A DNA stretch of 64,000 nucleotides from Escherichia coli (lineage in GTDB: Bacteria > Pseudomonadota > Gammaproteobacteria > Enterobacterales > Enterobacteriaceae): assembly GCF_002854065.1 (NCBI RefSeq), contig NZ_CP024147.1, one strand, 5' to 3'. The notes beneath the pieces are model-generated. The model saw only the letters and a program-made list of their open reading frames with translations, did not search any database and was not told where the DNA came from. Each line of letters begins with the position of its first letter. Positions within the stretch are counted from its first letter, which is position 1. A program made the position numbers and the translations under genes. This document shows positions 4,859 through 60,166 of the stretch, in pieces.

Positions 4859-4867
4859 TTAAGTGAA

Positions 4868-4901
4868 GGCCGGATATGACGCATTAAGCGTCGCATCCGG
4901 C
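4868..4901. repeat. REP (repetitive extragenic palindrome) element
   Basis: gccggatatgacgcattaagcgtcgcatccggc palindrome between convergent tilS and rof. Confidence 0.75.
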
Positions 4902-4910
4902 GAAAGTCAA

Positions 4911-7287: not shown

Positions 7288-7372
<85 letters not shown>

Positions 7373-7411
7373 CCCCCCTCATACCTTAAGGCGGATAAGG
7401 CATTTACTTTA

Positions 7412-14063: not shown

Positions 14064-14639
14064 GTGGCGAAGAGCGTACCCGCAATTTTTCTTGACCGTG
14101 ATGGCACCATTAATGTCGATCACGGCTATGTCCATGAGATCGACAACTTTGAATTTATCGACGGTGTTATTGACGCCATGCGCGAGCTAAAAAAAATGGG
14201 CTTTGCGCTGGTGGTAGTAACCAACCAGTCTGGCATTGCTCGCGGTAAATTTACCGAAGCACAGTTTGAAACGCTGACCGAGTGGATGGACTGGTCGCTG
14301 GCGGACCGAGATGTCGATCTGGATGGTATCTATTATTGCCCGCATCATCCGCAGGGTAGTGTTGAAGAGTTTCGTCAGGTCTGCGATTGCCGCAAACCAC
14401 ATCCGGGGATGCTTTTGTCAGCACGCGATTATTTGCATATTGATATGGCCGCTTCTTATATGGTGGGCGATAAATTAGAAGATATGCAGGCAGCGGTTGC
14501 GGCGAACGTGGGAACAAAAGTGCTGGTGCGTACGGGTAAACCTATTACACCTGAAGCAGAAAACGCGGCAGATTGGGTGTTAAATAGCCTGGCAGACCTG
14601 CCGCAAGCGATAAAAAAGCAGCAAAAACCGGCGCAATGA
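14064..14639 (+). CDS. gmhB: D-glycero-beta-D-manno-heptose-1,7-bisphosphate 7-phosphatase
   Basis: 191-aa HAD-family ORF (DRDGTIN motif). Confidence 0.93.
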
Positions 14640-14678
14640 TTAAAAGATGAGCGATTGAAATAAAAATGCATTTTTCCG

Positions 14679-14707
14679 CTTGTCTTCCTGAGCCGACTCC
14701 CTATAAT
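14679..14707 (+). promoter_or_regulatory. rrnH P1 promoter (-35 cttgtc / -10 tataat)
   Basis: Canonical rrn P1 architecture …cttgtcttcctgagccgactccctataatgcgcc. Confidence 0.7.
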
Positions 14708-14789
14708 GCGCCTCCATCGACACGGCGGATGTGAATCACTTCACACAAACAGCCGGTTCGGTTGAAGAGAAAAATTCTGAAATTCAGGG

Positions 14790-14817
14790 TTGACTCTGAA
14801 AGAGGAAAGCGTAATAT
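14790..14817 (+). promoter_or_regulatory. rrnH P2 promoter (-35 ttgact / -10 taatat)
   Basis: ttgactctgaaagaggaaagcgtaatat upstream of 16S leader. Confidence 0.7.
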
Positions 14818-15001
14818 ACGCCACCTCGCGACAGTGAGCTGAAAGCCGCGTCGCAACTGCTCTTTAACAATTTATCAGACAATCTGTGTGGGCACTCGAA
14901 GATACGGATTCTTAACGTCGCAAGACGAAAAATGAATACCAAGTCTCAAGAGTGAACACGTAATTCATTACGAAGTTTAATTCTTTGAGCATCAAACTTT
15001 T

Positions 15002-16544
<1,543 letters not shown>

Positions 16545-33033: not shown

Positions 33034-33860
33034 GCGTCGCTTCCTTCAGCGGTGTTAAAGGTACAGGTGGACAAATCCAGCAGGCTGATATCGCCGTGAC
33101 CGGTGAGCCACACCCTCTGACCCAGCGCCTGTACCAGTGTCTCTCCCGGACCGTCCTGCCAGACTGTTTCCCGGCACAGACGCAGGGAGTCGGCAGCCTT
33201 TTCAGAGCCGCTGTAGCGGGGAAACAGCTAGGCACTGTGTGTATCGCCATTGTTCAGGGTGACGTTGACGGGTTTCCAGATCAAATCGATCAGATGCGCA
33301 GGCTGCGGCGATTTCAGCGAACAGATTTGTGAAAACGGCAGCCAGATATATGCTCCGCCCGCGATCAGTTCGAGTACCGGACCGGTACGGGAGTCGCTGT
33401 CGCTAATCCAGTCAAATGCGCCGCCATTCCACTGCCCGGAAGTGTCTGTTATGGCCTCAAGCGCGCGGCTGCGGTGGGTGTCAGCTTCCTGCGCTTCACC
33501 ACGGGCGTTACAGGCGAGGGCGGTCAGCAGATCCTCCATCCAGGCGGGCGGCGGGAGAATAACACCGGGTCGCTGTTCGCCCTGAAAGCAGACGTGGCGG
33601 TATATCTCACAGCGGATCAGCTCGCCAAATACCTGCGCTTCGCGGGTATAATTTGCGTCCATCCGGGCGCATAGCTGGATCTGTTGCAGTGCCCGCGACC
33701 AGTCGCCTGCCACGCAAAATAACTGAAACAGGCTGTGGCGGCTGGAGGCCTGCGCTGGGTGCATCCTGACCTGCAGCTCTGCCATCTGAATGCCCTCCGC
33801 CAGGGAATAATCCCGCAGCAGTGCCGACAAGGTAGTCGGTAGCTTGTTAATGTTTGTCAT
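33030..33860 (-). pseudogene. tagJ: T6SS accessory protein TagJ/ImpE (SciE)-like, interrupted by an in-frame amber codon at 33228-33230
   Basis: 210-aa ORF stops at TAG; the same frame continues about 65 codons to a TGA that overlaps the tssE start, giving about 275 aa in total. Confidence 0.55.
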
Positions 33861-34761
33861 GAGATATCTCTCCGTGTTGTGCCGGGTTTATCCGGTAATG
33901 GCTGTCAATGCCAATGATGCGATGCTCTTTCCGTGTCAGATCGGGCAGTACGGTGCTATGCGCTGTTTCCGGGGCGTATTCCGGGGAAAGTAAATGCAGG
34001 ATATCAGGGGGAGTCTTTTCGACAGGCCAGGCTGTTTCACCTTCGCCGGTGGCATCCAGTACATTGAGAATAGCGTCAATGCTTAACCCGCCAGTGACCA
34101 TATCCTGCAATGTCTCGGCTTCGGTGACCAGGTCACGCAATGAATCCAGATCCTGCGAGGTGGGCTCTTCGTTAAAGGGAAAAGGATCAGCATGGCGATG
34201 AAGATCTTGTTCGGGAGATAACAACGCCTCGCGGTATTCCTGATAAAGTCGGGTCAGGGCATTCCCTTTTTCCGCACCTTCTCCGGTGGAGGAGGCTCCA
34301 TGAACAGGAATGATATCGAATGGATTTTGTGATGTCAGATGCTGCTGCCTGAACCAATCCAGATCCAGATATTCGGTTATTGCTTCCGACGTGATGGCAG
34401 TCTGCGATATCGTTTTTACTGCGCTCAGGTCCGGAGATGATGGATTGCCATGTACAAGGCACCATGAAGATAACCCCCATTCTATCAGGTCGCCTTCATT
34501 CAGACGCATACGGTGATGAGGTTCCACAATCTGGTCGTTTACCGTACAGCAATATTCGGTAGACTGATTGATAATCCACCATGCTTCTTCGTGGCGGGTC
34601 AGAGTGAGGGCAATCTTTACATCATCATTCACCTTAAAAACAGGAATCCAGGGAGAGGTAACGGTGAAGATAATTTGTGTTCCTTCAGTCGCGTAAATTG
34701 TGTTATCGGCGATCCCGTGCGCCTGTATTTTTTGGAGTCCCCACGTAATATTTGGTTTCAT
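33847..34761 (-). CDS. tagH: T6SS-associated FHA-domain protein (TagH/Fha-like)
   Basis: 304-aa ORF; N-terminal region fits an FHA-like pattern (…WWIINQSTEYCCTVNDQIV…LNEGDLIEWG…); first gene of the minus-strand T6SS block. Confidence 0.5.
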   Translation of the reverse strand: MKPNITWGLQKIQAHGIADNTIYATEGTQIIFTVTSPWIPVFKVNDDVKIALTLTRHEEAWWIINQSTEYCCTVNDQIVEPHHRMRLNEGDLIEWGLSSWCLVHGNPSSPDLSAVKTISQTAITSEAITEYLDLDWFRQQHLTSQNPFDIIPVHGASSTGEGAEKGNALTRLYQEYREALLSPEQDLHRHADPFPFNEEPTSQDLDSLRDLVTEAETLQDMVTGGLSIDAILNVLDATGEGETAWPVEKTPPDILHLLSPEYAPETAHSTVLPDLTRKEHRIIGIDSHYRINPAQHGEISHDKH

Positions 34762-35208
34762 TGTGTATCACTGTGTAGAGTGTTTCTTTCAAAAGAATAA
34801 GTTTTCTAAATTTTTAGATAAGCAATGCTGATCAATTTACTTTATCAATATAAGTTTTCGCGGAAATATATAGTGGTGATTTTTAATTTAATATATTCAT
34901 GGTGTGTATGAAATTGACTTGCTCTATTGAATATCACCATGAAAAAGATACTACCTGCTATATTACATAGTGTTCTGTGATATGCATCATTGTTTCATTC
35001 TGCCTTTTTGATAATTCTATTAATTAGAAGTTTTAATCGGTACAGTTATGTTTATGTATCATTTATATGTTATTACATCATTAGGTGTAACAGATGGACA
35101 CTCCTGTTTCGCGCAGTGCACTATATGGAAAGCTAACCAAATCTTTGTTTAGATCTTTGGAATCTGCGACAACGTTCTGTAAATTACGTGCTAACCCTTA
35201 TGTCGAAC
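34762..35208. promoter_or_regulatory. AT-rich intergenic region upstream of the minus-strand T6SS operon (former divergent promoter region)
   Basis: About 450 bp of strongly AT-rich non-coding sequence between tagH start and IS2. Confidence 0.45.
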
Positions 35209-35219
35209 TGGATTTGCCC

Positions 35220-36125
35220 CTATATTTCCAGACATCTGTTATCACTTAACCCATTACAAGCCCGCTGCCGCAGATATTCCCGTGGCGAGCGATAACCCAG
35301 CGCACTATGCGGATGCCATTCGTTATAATGCTCGAACGCCTCTGCAAGGTTCTTTGCTGCCGTTAACCCGTCTGGTTTGGGCATGATACTGATGTAGTCA
35401 CGCTTTATCGTTTTCACGAAGCTCTCTGCTATTCCGTTACTCTCCGGACTCCGCACCGCCGTGTTCTTCGGTTCAAGTCCCAACATCCGGGCGAACTGGC
35501 GTGTTTCATTAGCCCGGTAGCATGAACCATTATCCGTCAGCCACTCCACTGGAGACGACGGAAGATCGTTGCCGAAGCGGCGTTCCACCGCTCCCAGCAT
35601 GACGTCCTGTACTGTTTCACTGTTGAAGCCGCCGGTAGTGACCGCCCAGTGCAGTGCCTCACGATCACAGCAGTCCAGCGCGAACGTGACACGCAGTCTC
35701 TCTCCGTTATCACAGCAGAACTCGAACCCGTCAGAGCACCATCGCTGATTGCTTTCTTTCACGGCCACTCTGCCTGTATGTGCCCGTTTCGATGGCGGTA
35801 CAGCAGGTTTTCGCTCAAGCAACAGCGCATTCTGGCGCATGATCCGGTAAACACGTTTGGCATTGATCGCAGGCATACCATCAAGTTCTGCCTGTCTGCG
35901 AAGCAGCGCCCATACCCGACGATAACCATACGTGGGCAGCTCTCCGATAACATGGTGTATACGGAGAAGCACATCCGTATCATCAGTGTGACGACTGCGG
36001 CGGCCATCCATCCAGTCATCGGTTCGTCTGAGAATGACGTGCAACTGCGCACGCGACACCCGGAGACAACGGCTGACTAAGCTTACTCCCCATCCCCGGG
36101 CAATAAGGGCGCGTGCGCTATCCAC
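35220..36125 (-). CDS. insD: IS2 transposase OrfB (InsD)
   Basis: 301-aa DDE transposase ORF inside IS2. Confidence 0.92.
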
Positions 36126-36448
36126 TTTTTTGCCCGTCCATATTCAACGGCTTCTTTGAGGAGTTCATTTTCCATCGTTTTCTTGCCGAGCAGGCGCTGG
36201 AGTTCTTTAATCTGCTTCATGGCGGCAGCAAGTTCAGAGGCAGGAACAACCTGTTCTCCGGCGGCGACAGCAGTAAGACTTCCTTCCTGGTATTGCTTAC
36301 GCCAGAGAAATAACTGGCTGGCTGCTACACCATGTTGCCGGGCAACGAGGGAGACCGTCATCCCCGGTTCAAAGCTCTGCTGAACAATTGCGATCTTTTC
36401 CTGTGTGGTACGCCGTCTGCGTTTCTCCGGCCCTAAGACATCAATCAT
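36083..36448 (-). CDS. insC: IS2 OrfA (InsC) HTH regulator
   Basis: [25 protein letters not shown]… inside IS2. Confidence 0.9.
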
Positions 36449-36539
36449 CTGTTCTCCAATGACTAGTCTAAAAACTAGTATTAAGACTATCACTTATTTA
36501 AGTGATATTGGTTGTCTGGAGATTCAGGGGGCCAGTCTA

Positions 36540-39390
36540 CGAACTGACGCATTGGTTGCATCAGTTAATACAACAACCAGAGAATGACATTCACAATGTG
36601 CTTCGACATTATCAAATAACATCTGCTGATGTTGAGAAGGCGTTAATTCAGCAATTGAATATATTGCCTGCCGGAGCGAGTGTAATTAACGATTTTTCCC
36701 ATCATATCGATCTTTCTGTTGAAAAAGCCTGGATGTTGGCAAGTATCCGCTTTGGCGATCAAAAAATTCGTAGTGGATGGTTATTACTTGCCTGGTTAAC
36801 CACGCCAGAATTGTGTCGGGTGTTAAAAAATATTTGTGCGCCATTGGCAGAGCTACCGGTAGATGAACTATTAGATATTCTTCCGTCTTTAATCACTTCA
36901 TCTCCTGAATTAACAGAAATGCCTTATGACGGCTCGGATTTAAATTCTGCAGTACCGGGGGAAGCTAGCCAGGTCTTTGCCGGCGAATCAACTGGAAGCA
37001 AATCCGCGCTGGCGAAATACTGTCAGGACATGACTGCGCTGGCCCGTGAAGGCAATATCGATCCGGTCACCGGTCGCGAACACGAGATCCGTACTATGAC
37101 GGATATTCTGCTGCGCCGTCGCCAGAACAACCCGCTACTGACCGGCGAAGCGGGAGTCGGGAAAACGGCAGTGGTGGAAGGATTCGCGCTGGCGATTGCC
37201 GGGGGGGAAGTACCGCCTTCACTGCGTAACGTGCGGTTGCTTTCACTGGATGTTGGCGCGCTGCTGGCTGGGGCGTCCATGAAGGGTGAGTTTGAATCTC
37301 GCCTGAAAGCGTTGCTGGAAGAGGCCGCGCACTCGCCGCAGCCGGTAATCCTTTTTGTTGATGAAGTTCACACGCTGGTGGGCGCTGGTGGGCGCTGGTG
37401 GTACATCCGGCACCGTCGCATCACGGGCAGTGTGCAGTCCTGGCAGTATACGCCGCGCGGGCTGCTGGCGCTCCATACGGATGAAGAGAAACGGGAGACG
37501 CGCTGGCAGTACACCCCGGAAGGGCTGGTTGCCAGTCTGAGCAACGGCAATGGGGCTCAGTACCGGTTCAGCTACGACGGCGACGGACGGCTGACGGGAG
37601 AACAGCGCCCGGACGGTCTGATACGGATGTTTGCGCTGAATGCGGGCGGGTTCCCGGTCATCATCCAGACGCAGGGCACAGAAGGAGGGATGCGTAATGA
37701 GCGACAGGAGCGTGATGCGCTGGGCCGCCTGCTGCGCAGTGACACGCAGCACAGTACACGGACCTTCAGCTACAACCGTCTTGACCAGATAACGGAAGTG
37801 ACGCTCACCCCCACGGAAGAAGGGGAACGGCTGCACCACATGCAGGCGGACAGGGTGCGCTTTGCGTATGACCGCAGCGGCTGGCTGACGGCAGAGCACA
37901 GCGTGCACGGCAGCATAAAGTACCGGCGCGATGCGCTGGGCAATCCCACCGATATCACCTTACCGGACGGGCAGCATCTCAGCCATCTTTACTACGGCAG
38001 CGGGCATCTGCTCCAGACGGCACTGGACGGTATCACGGTCAGCGAATATGAGCGTGACAGTCTGCACCGTCAGGTGATACGCACGCAGGGGAAACTGGCG
38101 ACGTTCAGCGGCTACAACGCCGACAACCGGTTAAGCTGGCAGCGCAGCCTGCCAGGTGGCAGCCAGAATCCACAGCAGGCCGGTACTCCCCCGGCGCAGA
38201 ACGACAGCGTGACGGCGCGGGACTATATCTGGAACGCAGACGGTGAAGTCGGCGGCATCAATGACAAACTGCGCGGTTGCCTGGTGTTCAGCTATGACCG
38301 CAGCGGCTGGCTGACCAGCCGCACGGGGCAGATGTATGACCATGACCATTATTATTACGATAAAGCGGGCAACCTGCTGACGGATGAGTATCAGGGAGCG
38401 GTGCTGGACAACCGCCTGCCGGGCTACGGGCGTGACCGTTACCGCTATAACGAATGGGGCGAACTGACAGAGCGCAGGGACCAGCAGCTGGAGTGGAACG
38501 CGCAGGGCCAGTTAACGCGGGTCATCAGCAGCAACAGCGAGACGCGGTATCAGTACGATGCGCTGGGCAGGCGCATCATCAAGGCGACCAGCAATCTCCA
38601 TACCGACCGGGGAGAACGAAGCCGGACAACGTTTGTGTGGGAAGGGTTCCGGCTGTTGCAGGAGACAACGTGGCAGGGAAAGCGGACATACCTGTACGAC
38701 GCGGAACAGCCGTACACGCCGGTGGCGGCCATCACCGGGCGCGGAGAGAGTCAAAAAATCTGGTATTACCATACGGACCTGACGGGCACGGTACAGGAGG
38801 TGACCGCGCCGGACGGGACGCTGGTGTGGGCGGGCTACCAGGCGGGATTTGGTGAAAACCGGGGCGACATCAGCAACAGCGGGGCGTACTTTGAACAGCC
38901 GCTGCGGCTGCCGGGGCAGTATTATGATGAAGAGACGGGGCTGCACTATAATCTGTTCAGATATTATGCGCCGGAGTGCGGGAGGTTCATAAGTCAGGAT
39001 CCGATAGGGCTGGCGGGTGGAATAAACCTCTATGCTTATGCTCCTAACCCAATTAGCTGGATCGATCCCTTTGGACTGGATTTACACCATATAATACAGC
39101 AAGAAATTTGGAAGGAGTTCAAAACAGATCTTAAAAAAGTCACCGGATATGTACAAAATGTCACGAAAAAGGCAGCCGACATGACAAACCTAATCGATCT
39201 GGATAAACCTTTTCATGGTAATCACCCAGCTTATAGTCAATATGTAAGAGAAGCAATCGAAGACCTGAAGGCTAATAATAACTTAACGTTGAAAGGATTA
39301 AGAGATTTACAAGATGATCTTAAAAAGAAAATAGGTGAAGCTCAAAAGTCTGGCAAAAATCTAAATGATTATTTTAAATCGGGGTGCTGA
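36540..39390 (+). CDS. chimeric ORF: 5'-truncated ClpV/TssH N-domain and AAA+ D1 Walker A region fused in frame to an Rhs YD-repeat core with a C-terminal toxin domain
   Basis: Residues …[13 protein letters not shown]…[13 protein letters not shown] are ClpV-like, then YD-repeat sequence (…[13 protein letters not shown]…), then the DPFGL junction and a roughly 110-aa C-terminal tip; no native start codon, as the track start lies inside the IS2 inverted repeat. Confidence 0.75.
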
Positions 39391-39845
39391 TTATGAGATA
39401 CAAAAAGGTAACTGTTTCTTATGAGCCTGCAATCACAGGAAATAGTAAAGGAGGGTATTCAGTAGAAATAAAAGATAGACTCTCTTTTAATAGTCCTACG
39501 GAGAGAAAATACTTTGAGTCTTTTTTTGAAAATAATGATGAAAACTATAATAGAGTTTTTATCAATAATTTTGAAACTATTGATACAGTTTATCTAAAAA
39601 ATTTAATTTTATTTCCAAAACAAAAAAGGATAAAGGAAATTGATATGCTAATATTTTCCCCGCACAAACTCGGACTTAGTTTTATGATATCGGAGAAATT
39701 ATATAATATTATAACTAAATTTAAACTTCCTCCGTTCAATAAGATACCAGCTCAAATCAATACATTCAATACGAAGTATTTTTTGATCGGTTTCCCAATG
39801 ATACCAAAAGAAAGAATTGATTTAGATAAATCTATATTTTTTTGA
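39384..39845 (+). CDS. putative Rhs immunity protein (cognate to the toxin tip at 39060-39390)
   Basis: 153-aa AT-rich ORF whose ATG overlaps the rhs stop (ATGA); typical toxin/immunity arrangement. Confidence 0.6.
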
Positions 39846-41038
39846 TACAAAAAAAAGAAGTGAATTTAATTTCAAATCATATGATGAATTCATCAAAATG
39901 GATTACTCTATTATACCTAAAAAAATATACCCAGATGTATTTTATGATGTCGATGTTATCGGTTTTCAGGGCAAAGGGCTATTTTTTTCTGACAGACTGC
40001 TTGATGCAATACAAAATGCCGGGATTGTAGGGTTGCATATCGGTGACACGGAAATGGAAATGAATCCGTAGATTGATACAGGAACTTTCACTTTTAAAGG
40101 GATCTTTGGTGTCTGCGATTTTATCTTTCTGTTGGTTATTTAGCAATCCGGGAACGATATTAATCCGCTGAAGATCCTGATTTATCTACGGGGTAAATGC
40201 CCGAAATATAGAAGGTTTTATATTGGATCATATGAAAGGGGATCTTAACCTTGAAAATGCCATCAGGAAAGATGGTGGATTTTATCATAGTTATAATGAA
40301 AATAATCTTGCAGAGGGACGAAAATATTTAAGCACGGAAGAAATTAGCAAAATCCTCGAAAAGGGTAGTGTAACTGATGTTGATAGTAAAGGGCACTTTA
40401 AAGCAGGAGGATGTTGAATGAATAGTATAATAAATAAAAATATAAAAAAATAGATATGATTACTAAGGGTATTAAAAAATATCCTCTTGGAGAGGACAAG
40501 CAAGAGATCTCAAAATTAATTTGCGATTTTGAAAAAATGCCACGTAAAGAATGTAGTGTGTTTTATGGTGTTTTTTTTAATGATAGTGAACTAGTAGATA
40601 AATTAATTAAGATTGCAAGATTTTATGAGGGTGATGATAAAATAACCATAAACGTAATATCCTCTTTGGGAAATATGTTCGTGCGATACAAAATATATCC
40701 ATCAGAAGAATTATATAATCTTTTTTTTCAACTTGAAAAGTAAGAGGAAAGTTAATTATTATGTTTCTTTGTTCATTTTTAGATTTCCTCAATTTAGGAA
40801 TTATAAATTTAAATGGGACTATATTTTATCTATTCCAGATATTTCACCAAAAGATAAATCAAAAAGAAACTTTTACTCTATAGTCAATAATATCGTTTTG
40901 TCGGGAGAAACGATCCCTGTTGAGTATAAAAATAGAGTTATTAGCTTGCTGGAAATGTTTAGTAAGGGAAATATGGGAAGCGTGTATAATGATGAATATA
41001 TAGATTTAATTAATAGGCTAGTTAAGCAACACGGCTAA
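39846..41038 (+). other. AT-rich array of degenerate orphan toxin-tip and immunity ORFs (39898-40071, 40223-40417, 40456-40743, 40733-41038)
   Basis: Short ORFs in shifting frames, homopolymer A/T runs at frame breaks, and a degenerate Rhs junction-like sequence near 40160-40195. Confidence 0.45.
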
Positions 41039-41322
41039 GTCGGAACGTAATAATCTCGGTGAATATTGGTTTTTATTCTCCCGGATCTCCGCCAGTACTA
41101 ACAGGCGAAAATCCGGGAGGACTGATATTACGGCTGGATAATATCGTCAATAAACACCACACCATCAGTAGTACGCAACCAGCGCGGCGCTTTCAGTTTT
41201 GCCGCAAAGAACCAGATCAGTTCACAAAGCAGCCCCGTCAGGGGTTGTTCCATTTTAGATCCCTGCGCCTGTTCCGTCAGGATCTGGAGTAATACCTCGC
41301 AATATTCACACAATTGTAGTGG

Positions 41323-42735
<1,413 letters not shown>

Positions 42736-49180: not shown

Positions 49181-49320
49181 GTCTGGCGTAGGCCGGATAA
49201 GACGTTTACGCCGCATCCGGCAATTGTGCACCGATGCCTGATGCGACGCTGACGCGTCTTATCATGCCTACAAATCTGTACGCGAACCGTAGGCCGAATA
49301 ATGCGTTCACGCCGCATCCG
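49181..49320. repeat. REP/BIME repeat cluster
   Basis: Repeated gccggataagacgtttacgccgcatccggca and gcctgatgcgacgctg motifs. Confidence 0.75.
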
Positions 49321-49385
49321 ACCTGAAAATTCTTAAATCAATCTTCGCCGGGGGCCATGCGCTCCCGCTGTTGTGGAGGTTACCC

Positions 49386-51770: not shown

Positions 51771-52520
51771 ATGTCCTTGCCGTCGATTCCCTCTTTTGTG
51801 TTGTCGGGATTACTGTTGCTTTGCTTGCCGTTTTCTTCATTTGCCAGCGCCACCACATCACATATCTCTTTCAGCTACGCCGCCCGCCAGCGGATGCAAA
51901 ACCGTGCGCGTTTATTAAAACAGTACCAAACCCATCTGAAAAAGCAGGCCAGCTATATTGTGGAAGGCAATGCCGAAAGCAGAAGGGCGCTACGCCAGCA
52001 CAACCGCGAACAGATAAAACAGCATCCAGAATGGTTTCCTGCGCCGCTCAAGGCGAGTGACAGACGCTGGCAGGCGCTGGCGGAAAACAACCACTTTTTA
52101 AGCAGCGACCATCTGCATAACATTACCGAAGTGGCGATTCACCGCCTGGAGCAGCAGCTTGGCAAGCCTTACGTCTGGGGCGGCACGCGGCCTGATAAAG
52201 GCTTTGACTGTAGCGGGTTGGTTTTTTATGCCTACAACAAGATCCTCGAGGCGAAGCTCCCGCGTACGGCTAATGAGATGTATCACTACCATCGGGCAAC
52301 GATTGTGGCGAATAACGACCTGCGCCGGGGAGATTTGCTGTTTTTCCATATCCACAGCCGCGAGATTGCCGACCATATGGGGGTATATCTGGGCGACGGT
52401 CAGTTTATTGAGTCACCGCGCACCGGGGAAACCATTCGGGTAAGTCGGTTAGCTGAACCTTTCTGGCAGGATCATTTTTTAGGCGCGCGCCGGATTTTGA
52501 CGGAGGAGACGATTTTGTAG
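51771..52520 (+). CDS. yafL: NlpC/P60-family peptidase lipoprotein YafL
   Basis: ORF with signal peptide and Cys peptidase motif (DCSGLV); start chosen at MSLPSIPSF. Confidence 0.85.
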   Translation: MSLPSIPSFVLSGLLLLCLPFSSFASATTSHISFSYAARQRMQNRARLLKQYQTHLKKQASYIVEGNAESRRALRQHNREQIKQHPEWFPAPLKASDRRWQALAENNHFLSSDHLHNITEVAIHRLEQQLGKPYVWGGTRPDKGFDCSGLVFYAYNKILEAKLPRTANEMYHYHRATIVANNDLRRGDLLFFHIHSREIADHMGVYLGDGQFIESPRTGETIRVSRLAEPFWQDHFLGARRILTEETIL

Positions 52521-52612
52521 GACGGATAAGGCATTCACGCCGCATCCGGCAGTTGTACGCAGGTGCCTGATGCGACGCTGGCGCGTCTTATCATGCCTAC
52601 AAATCTGTGCGT
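52521..52612. repeat. REP/BIME repeats upstream of rayT
   Basis: ggacggataaggcattcacgccgcatccggca… gcctgatgcgacgctggcgcgtcttatcatgcctacaa. Confidence 0.75.
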
Positions 52613-52695
52613 TTTTGCGAGCCGCTTTCCCGATATAACACAGCGTCATTGTCGGCCTTTCCTTTTCCTCTTACCGTTGAGAAAAAGGAGTCGCT

Positions 52696-53193
52696 ATGTC
52701 GGAATATCGTCGTTATTACATCAAAGGGGGAACATGGTTTTTCACGGTAAATTTACGCAATCGTCGAAGCCATCTTCTGACCTCCCAATTCCAGGCGCTC
52801 CGTAACGCCATTATTAAAGTTAAGCGAGACAGACCTTTTGAAATTAACGCCTGGGTCGTTTTGCCGGAGCATATGCATTGCATATGGACATTACCCGAAA
52901 GCGATGATGATTTTTCCTCCCGCTGGCGGGAGATTAAAAAGCAGTTCACCCATGCTTGCGGATTGAAAAATATCTGGCAACCGCGTTTTTGGGAGCACGC
53001 CATTCGCAATACCACAGATTATCGCCATCATGTTGATTATATTTATATAAATCCAGTGAAACATGGCTGGGTAAAGCAGGTGAGAGATTGGCCATTCTCA
53101 ACGTTCCATCGCGATGTCGCGCGAGGGTTATATCCCATCAATTGGGCGGGAGACATAACGGATTTGAGCGCTGGGGAGCGTATCATTTTATAA
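52696..53193 (+). CDS. rayT: REP-associated tyrosine transposase (IS200/IS605-like HUH)
   Basis: 165-aa ORF; flanked by REP clusters on both sides. Confidence 0.9.
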   Translation: MSEYRRYYIKGGTWFFTVNLRNRRSHLLTSQFQALRNAIIKVKRDRPFEINAWVVLPEHMHCIWTLPESDDDFSSRWREIKKQFTHACGLKNIWQPRFWEHAIRNTTDYRHHVDYIYINPVKHGWVKQVRDWPFSTFHRDVARGLYPINWAGDITDLSAGERIIL

Positions 53194-53199
53194 TTTTGC

Positions 53200-53320
53200 G
53201 CTGGTGCCGGATGTGCTTACGCTTATCCGGCCTACGAATCGTGCTTTAACGGTAGGCCGGATAAGGCGTTCACGCCGCATCCGGCAATTGTGCACCAATG
53301 CCGGATGCGCCCCTTAAAGG
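53200..53320. repeat. REP/BIME repeats downstream of rayT
   Basis: ccggatgtgcttacgcttatccggcctac… ggtaggccggataaggcgttcacgccgcatccggca. Confidence 0.75.
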
Positions 53321-53324
53321 CCAA

Positions 53325-55034
53325 TCAACTCAACGCCCCCATAATCTTCAACTCCAGCTCATCCGGCACTTCGTTATACGACAGCACATGCAGCCCCGGC
53401 GCAAACAACCTTGCATAACGCGCCAGCAAAGGGCGCAGCTGAGGCGGCACCAGCAGCACCGGGTCTTTCCCCGCTGCTTTCATCTGCTCCTTCACCTGCG
53501 GCATCGTGCTCTGGAACTGGTTGAGCATGTTCGGGTCGACCGGCACGCTGTCGAGCATCACTTTACCGCCCTGTTGCGCCTGATTCACCACATTGGTGAG
53601 CAGATTTTCCAGCTCATTATTCAGCGTATACACCGTCAGCTCCTGCTTGCGAACGAACGGATGGGTAATGCTGCGCCGCAGCGCCAGGCGTACATCGGCC
53701 GCCAGCAGAATATGATCTTTAGTCACCGCGCTACTGGCGACCAGCACGGTGGCGATGGTGACGATATCGCGCAGGGAAACGCCTTCGGTCAGTAGTGTGC
53801 GGTACACTTTCAGCAACTGGCTGTAATTCAGCGCCGCGCTTAAGTCTTCTGCCAGGCGCGGTGCCATCGACGACAAACGGTTATGCAACTGTGTGATGTC
53901 GTCATAGTTAAACAAATCAGGAATATAGCTGCGTACAATCTTATTCACATGGGTGGCAATCACGCTGGCGCTGTCGATCACCTGATACCCCATATTCAGC
54001 GCCTTCGCTTTCTGCGCAGGCTGGATCCAGGTCACCGGCATCCCGTACGCCGGGTCGTTCCCCAGCACGCCGTCAATCTCGCCGTAGGTTTCGCTGGAGG
54101 GCAGGGCCATCAGTTTATCCGCCGGAATATCCGCTTCATCAGCCTTAATGCCGTTGATGAAAATAGCGTACTGGCTGGGCTTAAGGCGGAAGTTTTCCCG
54201 AATGCGGATCTCCGGCAGCAGCACGCCGTTGCCGTCGGATATCACCTGTCGCACGCCGCGAATACGCTGGGTGAGCGGGTTGCCCTGGGCTTTGTCCACC
54301 AGCGCCACCAGCTTGTAACCGAGGCTTAAACTGATAGGCTCGATCAGCGGTATCGTTTCCCAACTGACCTGTTGCTCGCTGGTTTCGGTGATGGTGCGGG
54401 TCAGCGTTTCGAGACTTTTCTCCTCCGCCTTCGCTGCCTGCGGGCGTTTGCTCATCCGCCAGCCGGTAAAGCCAAGCAGGGCGCTGAACAGCAAAAACGG
54501 CAGATGCGGCATTCCCGGCACCACCGCCAGCACAAACATAATCCCGGTGGCGGTGTAGAGCACCGACGGGCTTGCCAGCAGCTGGTGGCGCACGTCATGG
54601 GCGATATCGCCGTTGTCGCTGACGCGGGTGACGATAATCGCCGCCGCGGTGGAGAGCAGCAGGGAAGGGATCTGCGCCACCAGCCCGTCGCCGATGGTCA
54701 TCAGCACATATTGCTGGAAGGCAGCATCGGCGCTCAGGTTGTATTTGAAGATCCCGATACAGACACCGCCGATCAGGTTGATCGCCAGAATCATCATCCC
54801 GGCGATGGCGTCCCCGCGCACAAACTTTGATGCCCCGTCCATCGCGCCGTAGAAATCGGCCTCGCTGGCGACATCTTTACGCCGGGTTTGCGCCTGCGCC
54901 TGGTTGATCAACCCGGCGTTAAGGTCGGCGTCAATCGCCATCTGTTTGCCGGGCATCGCGTCCAGGGTAAAGCGGGCAGAAACCTCGGAAATACGCTCGG
55001 CCCCTTTGGTGACGACGATAAAGTTGATTGTCAA
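53325..55034 (-). pseudogene. lfhA: Flag-2 lateral flagellar export protein FlhA homolog, 5'-truncated remnant
   Basis: FlhA-like sequence (…FYGAMDGASKFVRGDAIAG…) lacking the N-terminal region; no ATG start. Confidence 0.85.
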
Positions 55035-55043
55035 CAGCGTCAG

Positions 55044-55794
55044 TCAATCCGAGCGTGAAAGCATTATCGCCGCGCTGCACGGGCAGTCGATTTTTAACGG
55101 TGGCGGGCTGTCGCCGTTAAATAACATCAGCCCGACTCTTCCGCCGAAACCTGCTACCGTGGCGGTGCCGGAAGAGACGGAGAAAAAAGCGCGCGACGTC
55201 AACGAGAAAACGGCGCTGCTGAAGAAGAAATCCGCCACCGAGCTTGGCGAGCTGGCAACCAGTATCAACACCATCGCCCGCGATGCGCATATGGAAGCAA
55301 ATCTGGAGATGGAGATTGTCCCGCAGGGATTACGCGTACTGATTAAAGACGACCAGAACCGCAATATGTTTGAACGCGGCAGCGCGCAGATTATGCCGTT
55401 CTTTAAAACGCTGCTGGTGGAGCTCGCGCCAGTGTTCGACTCGCTCGATAACAAAATTATTATTACCGGGCATACCGATGCGATGGCCTACAAAAACAAT
55501 ATCTACAACAACTGGAACCTTTCGGGTGACCGCGCGCTTTCGGCTCGTCGGGTGCTGGAAGAGGCCGGAATGCCGGAAGATAAAGTGATGCAGGTGAGCG
55601 CGATGGCGGACCAGATGCTGCTGGATGCCAAAAATCCGCAAAGCGCGGGCAATAGGCGTATTGAAATTATGGTGCTGACCAAAAGTGCGTCCGATACGCT
55701 GTATCAATACTTTGGTCAGCATGGGGATAAAGTGGTGCAGCCGCTGGTGCAAAAGCTGGATAAGCAGCAGGTGCTTTCGCAGCGAACGCGCTAA
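55044..55794 (+). pseudogene. lafU: Flag-2 MotB-like stator protein, 5'-truncated remnant
   Basis: OmpA/MotB C-terminal domain ORF without N-terminal TM segment; abuts lfhA remnant. Confidence 0.85.
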
Positions 55795-55831
55795 ATGCTG
55801 AATCTTTACGCATTTCTCAAACCCTGAAATC

Positions 55832-55849
55832 ACTGTATACTTTACCAGT
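55832..55849 (+). promoter_or_regulatory. LexA (SOS) box in dinB promoter
   Basis: CTGTATACTTTACCAG matches the CTGT-N8-ACAG LexA consensus. Confidence 0.85.
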
Positions 55850-55864
55850 GTTGAGAGGTGAGTA

Positions 55865-56920
55865 ATGCGTAAAATCATTCATGTGGATATGGACTGCTTT
55901 TTCGCCGCAGTGGAGATGCGCGACAATCCCGCCCTGCGCGATATCCCTATTGCTATTGGCGGCAGCCGCGAACGTCGGGGGGTGATCAGCACCGCCAATT
56001 ATCCCGCGCGTAAATTTGGCGTACGCAGCGCTATGCCGACAGGGATGGCGCTCAAATTATGCCCACATCTCACCTTGCTTCCGGGGCGCTTTGACGCCTA
56101 CAAAGAAGCCTCAAATCATATCCGTGAAATCTTCTCGCGCTACACCTCTCGCATTGAACCGTCGTCACTGGATGAGGCTTATCTCGATGTCTCCGACAGC
56201 GTCCATTGCCACGGTTCTGCGACCCTCATCGCCCAGGAAATCCGCCAGACGATTTTCAGCGAGCTGCAACTGACGGCGTCTGCGGGCGTGGCACCAGTAA
56301 AGTTTCTCGCCAAAATCGCCTCCGACATGAATAAACCCAACGGCCAGTTTGTGATTACGCCGGCAGAAGTTCCGGCATTTTTACAAACCTTACCACTGGC
56401 AAAAATCCCCGGCGTCGGCAAAGTCTCGGCGGCAAAACTGGAAGCGATGGGGCTGCGGACCTGCGGTGATGTACAAAAGTGTGATCTGGTGACGTTGCTT
56501 AAACGCTTTGGCAAATTTGGCCGTATTTTATGGGAGCGTAGTCAGGGCATTGACGAGCGCGACGTTAACAGCGAACGGTTGCGAAAATCCGTCGGCGTGG
56601 AACGCACGATGGCGGAAGATATTCATCACTGGTCTGAATGTGAAGCGATTATCGAGCGGCTGTATCCGGAACTTGAACGCCGTCTGGCAAAGGTAAAACC
56701 TGATTTACTGATTGCTCGCCAGGGGGTGAAATTAAAGTTCGACGATTTTCAGCAAACCACCCAGGAGCACGTCTGGCCGCGGCTGAATAAAGCTGACTTA
56801 ATCGCCACCGCGCGTAAAACCTGGGATGAACGCCGCGGCGGGCGAGGTGTGCGTCTGGTGGGGCTGCACGTGACGTTGCTTGACCCGCAAATGGAAAGAC
56901 AACTGGTGTTGGGATTATGA
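55865..56920 (+). CDS. dinB: DNA polymerase IV (translesion Y-family polymerase)
   Basis: 351-aa [25 protein letters not shown]…. Confidence 0.95.
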
Positions 56921-57933: not shown

Positions 57934-57988
57934 GGTGATGCTGCCAACTTACTGATTTAGTGTATGATGGTGTTTTTGAGGTGCTCCA

Positions 57989-58264
57989 GTGGCTTCTGTT
58001 TCTATCAGCTGTCCCTCCTGTTCAGCTACTGACGGGGTGGTGCGTAACGGCAAAAGCACTGCCGGACATCAGCGCTATCTCTGCTCTCACTGCCGTAAAA
58101 CATGGCAACTGCAGTTCACTTACACCGCTTCTCAACCCGGTACGCACCAGAAAATCATTGATATGGCCATGAATGGCGTTGGATGCCGGGCAACTGCCCG
58201 CATTATGGGCGTTGGCCTCAACACGATTTTACGTCACTTAAAAAACTCAGGCCGCAGTCGGTAA
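57989..58264 (+). CDS. insA: IS1 InsA
   Basis: [43 protein letters not shown]…. Confidence 0.92.
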
Positions 58265-58534
58265 CCTCGCGCATACAGCCGGGCAGTGACGTCATCGTCT
58301 GCGCGGAAATGGACGAACAGTGGGGCTATGTCGGGGCTAAATCGCGCCAGCGCTGGCTGTTTTACGCGTATGACAGTCTCCGGAAGACGGTTGTTGCGCA
58401 CGTATTCGGTGAACGCACTATGGCGACGCTGGGGCGTCTTATGAGCCTGCTGTCACCCTTTGACGTGGTGATATGGATGACGGATGGCTGGCCGCTGTAT
58501 GAATCCCGCCTGAAGGGAAAGCTGCACGTAATCA

Positions 58535-59818
<1,284 letters not shown>

Positions 59819-59962
59819 CCACTACATAACCTGAATCTGAGGCAGCACCTGGCACGGCTGGGACGGAAGTCGCTGTCGTTCTCAAAATCGGTGGAGCTGC
59901 ATGACAAAGTCATCGGGCATTATCTGAACATAAAACACTATCAATAAGTTGGAGTCATTACC

Positions 59963-60166
59963 GACCCTGAATACACCCGCCGTGGGGTTGCCAGTGCTTT
60001 GTTAAAACCTTGGATTAAGTCTGAATCCGAACTTACGGTGGACGCCAGCATAACCGCAAAACCCTTTTTTGAACGTTATGGTTTTCAGACAGTTAAGCAG
60101 CAGCGCGTTGAATGCCGGGGAGCGTGGTTTACTAATTTTTCTATGCGATATAAACCGCAACATTAA
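59963..60166 (+). pseudogene. yafP: yafP 3' part (64 codons) downstream of IS1
   Basis: Frame continues from 57933 once IS1 and one copy of the 9-bp duplication are removed. Confidence 0.85.

Follow-up and report, generated by a model that had tools for sequence, protein, structure and literature searches.

The DNA analysed here is a 64-kb stretch of an Escherichia coli genome (contig NZ_CP024147.1; 64,000 nt, hereafter the window). The subject is the gene rayT (yafM, tnpA_REP, TnpA_REP), which encodes a REP-associated tyrosine transposase (RAYT), together with the repetitive extragenic palindromic (REP) sequences on its two sides. The gene order is yafL-rayT-lfhA'-lafU-dinB, the same as in MG1655. 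Upstream of rayT lies yafL, encoding an NlpC/P60 peptidase, and downstream, on the opposite strand, is lfhA, an N-terminally truncated flhA-like pseudogene. The parts of the locus are, from left to right:

52517-52551, + strand: left y REP; fold -6.8 kcal/mol, z = -2.05; a 5' GTAG and bulged hairpin, the form bound by RayT
52552-52563: tail-to-tail linker of the left bacterial interspersed mosaic element (BIME), 12 nt, GTTGTACGCAGG; the same in K-12
52564-52600, - strand: left z2 REP (an inverted REP, iREP, on the + strand); fold -9.7 kcal/mol, z = -3.30
52601-52695, + strand: rayT leader, with an RNA hairpin at 52659-52690 that pairs the entire Shine-Dalgarno sequence AAGGAG (52685-52690)
52696-53193, + strand: rayT, an intact open reading frame (ORF) of 165 aa
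53205-53235, - strand: right short inverted REP, 31 nt, with a y-type stem and a z1-like short loop; fold -9.3 kcal/mol, z = -4.57; profile E = 9.9e-5
53236-53251: head-to-head linker, 16 nt, GAATCGTGCTTTAACG, by direct reading
53252-53286, + strand: right y REP, canonical; fold -12.2 kcal/mol, z = -4.40
53287-53298: linker, 12 nt
53299-53311, - strand: truncated inverted REP, 13 nt, TGCCGGATGCGCC; 3' arm only, partial profile match with E = 1.1

The identity of the gene product was settled by NCBIfam and the PDB, because Pfam gave a sub-threshold Y1_Tnp match only. RayT aligns with PDB entry 4ER8, the crystallised K-12 'TnpArep', at E = 1.5e-110 over residues 1-164, and matches the NCBIfam equivalog NF047646 ('REP-associated tyrosine transposase') with 177.1 bits against a cut-off of 80, which places it in the curated family. 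At the default threshold Pfam assigns no family; when E-values up to 10 are admitted, Y1_Tnp (IS200-like) appears with E = 0.013 and 16 bits, below its gathering score of 23. The protein is identical to that of K-12 at 153 of 165 residues (93%), the 12 substitutions being at positions 26, 30, 32, 34, 37, 69, 107, 130, 149, 154, 157 and 165. The HUH motif (H59-M60-H61), the catalytic Y115, and N119, H123, E161, R21 and Q95 are all as in K-12; the catalytic, metal-ligand and DNA-contact roles of these residues are taken from Messing et al. 2012 (PMC3479197). The C-terminus (...SAGERIIL) keeps both G160 and E161, the tail of group 2 RAYTs, which contacts GTAG and blocks the active site (PMC3479197, PMC8266576). 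Relative to K-12, codon differences in rayT are 28 synonymous and 12 non-synonymous, and the ratio of non-synonymous to synonymous change (dN/dS) of ~0.14, from a rough site count, indicates purifying selection. The stretch is 100% identical in the E. coli CUWW06 record NZ_CP182139.1, where the gene is annotated as rayT. With its full-length ORF, database matches and intact HUH and tyrosine residues, the HUH tyrosine transposase gene that the preliminary description placed at this locus is confirmed.

Three kinds of search, by pattern, by motif with mismatches allowed and by a profile built from the REPs, located the same ten full copies in the window; the profile found no further full copy. 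The REP head motif GTAGGCCKGATAAG, with up to two mismatches, occurs 10 times, against a mean of 0.54 in shuffled sequence, and none of 100 shuffles reaches 10. All ten full copies are intergenic. GTAG is present in nine, the exception being the copy at 4865, which has GAAG, and the single-stranded DNA fold ....(((((((..(((( ))))..))))))) is seen in eight, the exceptions being 4865 (a one-base mismatch) and 49289 (unfolded). Copies found by all three kinds of search stand on either side of rayT, so that its bracketing by REP/BIME clusters, as first described, is upheld. Each of the four full flanking copies folds into a stem-loop in which GTAG is left unpaired and a 2x2 bulge separates the lower stem from the upper one (z-scores as listed above), so that the motif and hairpin check that had been proposed for them gave no refutation. 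Recognition has been mapped experimentally to GTAG, the unpaired bulge, T11 and G32 (Corneloup et al. 2021, PMC8266576), all of which can be read directly in each of the four copies. In the left y REP they read T11, A12A13/G26C27 and G32, while in the copy at 53205 the bulge has AA opposite AC and is still unpaired.

On the left, the REPs stop 95 nt ahead of the rayT ATG. The cluster there had been placed from 52521 onwards; it is real, but starts at 52517. The unit 52517-52600 has the BIME-2 layout (a y REP and an inverse z2 REP, with a linker of 11-12 nt), which recurs at 7288-7370 and 49188-49271. Relative to K-12, two upper-stem/loop bases of the y REP differ, and the remainder of the left BIME is the same. 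On the + strand, the z2 iREP has both CT cleavage contexts, TGCC|TGAT (52564-52571) and GCC|TACA (52595-52601, the last base lying past the repeat); the cleavage-site consensus, TGCC|TGAT and GCC|TAC, is that of Ton-Hoang et al. 2012 (PMC3333891). The last three bases of the left REP's GTAG (52518-52520) double as the TAG stop codon of yafL, so that the REP starts inside the gene end. The same overlap occurs in K-12 and in AR_0085, where yafL ends at L007:924 and the REP runs from 921.

The right-hand REPs begin 11 nt past the rayT stop codon, and their unit (53205-53286), a short y-stem iREP followed by a y REP, is atypical. The 31-nt iREP has a GCC|TACG site on the + strand; TGCC|TGAT is absent, with TGCCGGAT in the stem instead. 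A short iREP of 30/31 nt directly after rayT is common to XJ34, CP131 and PapRG (L004, L005, L006 at 1711-1740), the allele group nearest to the window, whereas the K-12, O157 and B2-like alleles have z2 in that place. The truncated iREP at 53299-53311 forms no hairpin (z = -0.21), abuts the end of the lfhA pseudogene and aligns with a remnant in K-12.

Among complete E. coli genomes, rayT was found in 3574 of 5426 (66%), at a median of one place each, while a query that includes REPs has a median of at least 36 places per genome. The window has one copy, and rayT occupies an identical yafL/lfhA position in each of ten records examined (CUWW06, MG1655, XJ34, CP131, PapRG, AR_0085, O157, Ecol_743, FDA1251 and this window). 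In an earlier survey, tnpA_REP was present in 74 of 110 genomes, always as a single copy between yafL and fhiA (lfhA), preceded on its 5' side by one BIME and followed on its 3' side by a varying number of them; it had been lost by precise deletion in seven B2-clade strains and by hicAB replacement in 24 strains, nearly all of them B1 (Ton-Hoang et al. 2012, PMC3333891). The frequency and flank pattern observed here broadly match that survey.

Nine alleles were compared. The 3' array ranges from one iREP+REP unit (this window and O157:H7) up to five (FDAARGOS_1251), the window having the shortest of the nine, and it alternates iREP (-) and y REP (+) except in AR_0085, where two iREPs stand next to each other. 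In seven of the nine, one BIME makes up the 5' side. AR_0085 has two 5' BIME units (L007:921-1105), where the 110-genome survey of 2012 reported invariably one, and in PapRG-04-4 the left z2 copy was missed by the pattern scan. FDAARGOS_1251, with the longest REP array, also has a full-length flhA beside rayT. The rayT of O157:H7 F8797 (L008:1201-1698), annotated as a pseudogene, is interrupted by an internal stop, W99*, and stands between intact REPs.

Pairwise, the nine rayT alleles are 90-97% identical, with mosaic patterns, and the allele of the window is rare, only 14 of 3581 records having one at 95% identity or above. Nucleotide identity to K-12 is 99.6% for yafQ, 99.2% for dinJ, 94.5% for yafL, 91.6% for rayT, 95.6% for lfhA, 96.3% for lafU and 97.9% for dinB, which describes a divergence peak over 51771-56920 (yafL to dinB) centred on rayT.

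Plasmid copies of rayT were considered as a sign of transposition. There are 9 such places in the genome search, and a dedicated check gave 13 records covering at least 80% of the query. Most of the 15 plasmid records listed also have yafL; six or seven, ~210-240 kb in length, belong to laboratory K-12 and are probably F' plasmids. A 4.9-Mb 'plasmid' record with rayT is probably a chromosome. Since yafL comes along and the records are mostly these K-12 ones, the idea was rejected. Separately, the 149-kb E. coli plasmid CP044307.1, from chicken meat, has at 14422-15122 a rayT-like stretch with 80.7% identity to the window, diverging beyond every chromosomal E. coli allele seen.

The best explanation, to which we give a probability of roughly 0.93, is that the locus is the canonical E. 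coli REPtron, a single-copy, domesticated HUH/Y1 transposase gene at a fixed yafL/lfhA site. What defines a REPtron, a RAYT gene with cognate REPs/BIMEs on each side, is observed directly, and the arrangement noted in the preliminary description is the one published under that name; the generation and spread of REPs by the REPtron stays a proposal. The K-12 protein binds, cleaves and recombines single-stranded REP/BIME DNA in vitro (PMC3333891). It binds folded single-stranded REP and not iREP, with GTAG and the bulge both required, and it is monomeric, forms a 5'-phosphotyrosine intermediate, carries out strand transfer and has an inhibitory C-terminal tail (PMC3333891, PMC3479197, PMC8266576). 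Binding and cleavage in vitro have been shown for B268, a substrate taken from the 5' end of the K-12 REPtron that consists of a y REP and an inverted z2 REP (PMC3333891).

Carried over from that work, REP binding, cleavage and strand transfer would be expected of the present allele as well. RayT would be a monomeric single-strand DNA endonuclease and strand transferase that holds a folded single-stranded REP by its 5' GTAG, unpaired bulge and lower-stem T11 and G32. It would cut CT dinucleotides in the adjacent iREP or linker, becoming linked to the 5' phosphate through Y115, and could then join the cut end to another 3'-OH, while the C-terminal tail (G160/E161) would occupy the active site and restrain activity. 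As the literature suggests, RayT may act in trans on the dispersed REP/BIME (REPIN) population, maintaining or amplifying it, and its action may also alter the number of BIMEs, for instance the 1 to 5 units found in the 3' arrays. Correlative support for action in trans comes from REPIN populations, which are smaller in E. coli without a RAYT (Bertels and Rainey preprint).

Several points weigh on the other side. This allele departs from K-12 at 12 amino acids, albeit at none of the residues checked; the left y REP has an additional upper-stem A-C mismatch relative to K-12, and the first right-hand iREP is without the type I CT site (TGCC|TGAT). One third of E. coli genomes are without rayT and O157:H7 F8797 has a nonsense allele, so the function of the gene is dispensable. 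Mobilisation of REPs by RayT in vivo is inferred, cleavage and strand transfer being in vitro results with the K-12 protein only, and REP numbers differ only modestly between genomes with and without rayT (PMC3333891; Bertels and Rainey preprint).

Of the other explanations, the one that survives best, though unlikely, is that the flanking REPs are ordinary intergenic elements in host roles, their adjacency to rayT being a historical leftover. Such roles of REPs include mRNA 3'-end stabilisation or attenuation, binding of gyrase, IHF and Pol I, and HU-binding nucleoid-associated noncoding RNA (naRNA). In its favour, REPs of y/z2 type also occur in three unrelated intergenic regions of the window, whose gene contexts were mapped from CUWW06 with an offset of 7475, since the window is not collinear with it:

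4865-4902, + strand: single atypical REP, tilS/rof; fold -13.8 kcal/mol, z = -5.35
7288-7370: BIME, nlpE/yaeF; y REP 7288-7322 (+), z2 REP 7334-7370 (-)
49188-49323: BIME array, gmhA/yafJ; y REP 49188-49222 (+), z2 REP 49235-49271 (-), decayed y REP 49289-49323 (+)

REP clusters had been noted at each of these places. At 4868-4901 the REP is real, but is one atypical copy and no cluster. It has GAAG for GTAG and a one-base A/C mismatch for the AA/GC bulge. In vitro, a REP in which any one base of GTAG has been mutated is neither bound nor cleaved by RayT (PMC3479197), and the copy at 4865 would accordingly be a poor or dead substrate. The cluster given as 7288-7372 holds up as one y + z2 BIME, with the 5' half of a y REP, GGCGGATAAGGCATTTAC, standing alone 20 nt past it at 7390-7407. 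From 49181-49320, the y and z2 copies are real (49188-49271), but the third REP is decayed and has lost its folding (z = -0.03). Three y/z2 units, the left rayT BIME among them, also reach the gathering score (59.5) of the Rfam family naRNA4 (RF02564), at 7291-7367 (92.8 bits), 49191-49268 (the first pair; 76.6 bits) and 52520-52597 (65.1 bits), and the curated RNA family thus overlaps these DNA repeats. Further, the flanking BIMEs are kept in B2-clade strains from which rayT was precisely deleted, and REP counts are little different in genomes with and without rayT (PMC3333891). Against this, cognate REPs flank RAYT genes in many genera (PMC3333891, PMC8266576), the K-12 enzyme binds and cuts exactly these flanking BIMEs in vitro (PMC3333891), and BIME copy number is most variable right beside rayT. 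Host roles and service as RayT substrates are compatible, and not mutually exclusive.

The y-type or y-like REPs of the window (4865, 7288, 49188, 49289, 52517 and 53252) all have the GTAG orientation on the + strand, while the z2 and short copies all have the opposite orientation, on the - strand. Along the whole window the GC skew is positive, from which the + strand is inferred to be the lagging-strand template. With five clusters only, this orientation bias is statistically not meaningful.

That rayT is here an inactive relic heading for loss is very improbable. The gene is absent from a third of complete E. coli genomes, has an internal stop in the F8797 allele, encodes a protein auto-inhibited by its C-terminal tail (PMC3479197), and has no consensus promoter that could be found. 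However, the ORF is full-length with all checked residues intact, synonymous codon differences outnumber non-synonymous ones (28 vs 12), and the start region and Shine-Dalgarno sequence are kept across alleles. The promoter result is that of a sigma-70 scan of the rayT leader; a terminator scan gave one terminator-like site, no more than in shuffles, and rayT may be transcribed by read-through from yafL.

The leader hairpin folds at -13.1 kcal/mol (z = -2.94) in the window and at -8.9 kcal/mol (z ~-1.2) in K-12 and Ecol_743, while the whole 125-nt leader RNA folds no better than shuffles (z = -0.64). The block 52659-52691 has one variable site among the nine alleles, and the leader further upstream is highly variable. 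Changes in the stem amount to one one-sided C/U change opposite G; compensatory pairs are absent, and the structure is therefore unproven. In IS200, a stem-loop occludes the ribosome-binding site of tnpA and controls its translation. By analogy, and tentatively, the hairpin may hold down translation of rayT as a second brake beside the auto-inhibitory tail; as a separate idea, the divergence peak could reflect co-evolution with REPs. No mention of leader-hairpin control of rayT was found in the RAYT/TnpA_REP literature searched.

Least credible of all is that REP-rayT-REP is an autonomous, self-moving insertion sequence (IS) of the IS200/IS605 kind, which a Y1 transposase between sub-terminal hairpins resembles (PMC3333891) and to which the weak Y1_Tnp match (E = 0.013) also points: that match stays at 16 bits under a gathering score of 23, the gene is a single copy at the yafL/lfhA site in 10 of 10 records, its median is one place per genome (n = 3574), and its plasmid copies accompany yafL, mostly in K-12 laboratory records of ~210-240 kb.

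Read as a REPtron, the locus is like that of K-12 MG1655 in position, gene order, protein length (165 aa) and all checked catalytic and DNA-contact residues, in its nearly identical left BIME (y REP and z2 iREP), and in having its REP classes dispersed intergenically. It differs in the 12 amino acid substitutions and 91.6% nucleotide identity of rayT, in a right array of one iREP+REP unit where K-12 has two (a z2+y unit of ~100 bp is missing), and in the first right iREP, a 31-nt short-loop y-stem variant in the window and z2 in K-12. With the Y1 transposases of IS200/IS605 elements (IS608, ISDra2, IS200), RayT shares HUH and single-tyrosine chemistry on single-stranded DNA and an imperfect hairpin recognised together with a 5' guide tetranucleotide; a leader hairpin hiding the ribosome-binding site is possibly another likeness to IS200. 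Unlike them, rayT is single-copy and immobile, with a sub-threshold Y1_Tnp match, and RayT is monomeric, has the CT dinucleotide as its sole cleavage specificity and carries an auto-inhibitory C-terminal tail (PMC3479197). The group 3 REPIN-RAYT systems of Pseudomonas and Stenotrophomonas are similar in their single-copy RAYT and cognate inverted REPs, with REP doublets (REPINs) as the proposed mobilised unit. Group 3 systems have REPs that form short perfect palindromes, and their proteins are without the G160/E161 tail (PMC8266576), whereas this locus, with long bulged REPs and the tail present, is group 2.

Elsewhere in the window, lfhA and lafU (53325-55794) are a remnant of the lateral-flagella Flag-2 cluster, as in K-12. 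An IS1 in yafP (GNAT), at 57934-59963, is split by a 1.26-kb IS3-family element (58566-59826), and is uninterrupted in CUWW06; an Rfam isrC match (58637-58759) falls within this IS3 copy. About 7.5 kb within 33843-42573, a type VI secretion/Rhs region, is absent from CUWW06, and a second IS3 copy (41311-42573), inverted in orientation relative to CUWW06, adjoins the extra ~7.5 kb. CUWW06 has an IS1 between yafQ and dinJ, which the window is without; on these differences the window belongs to a sister strain and not to CUWW06 itself.

The locus belongs to a system that is already known and does not differ from it in kind; genetic, biochemical and structural accounts of that system have been published (Nunvar 2010; Ton-Hoang 2012; Messing 2012; Corneloup 2021; Bertels and Rainey). 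As natural variation the locus has a modest value of its own, in a rare rayT allele ~8% diverged from K-12, the shortest 3' array of the nine alleles, and a short iREP in which only one of the two cleavage sites that have been mapped is present. Natural variants of this kind could be ready-made substrates with which to probe the REP features needed by RayT.

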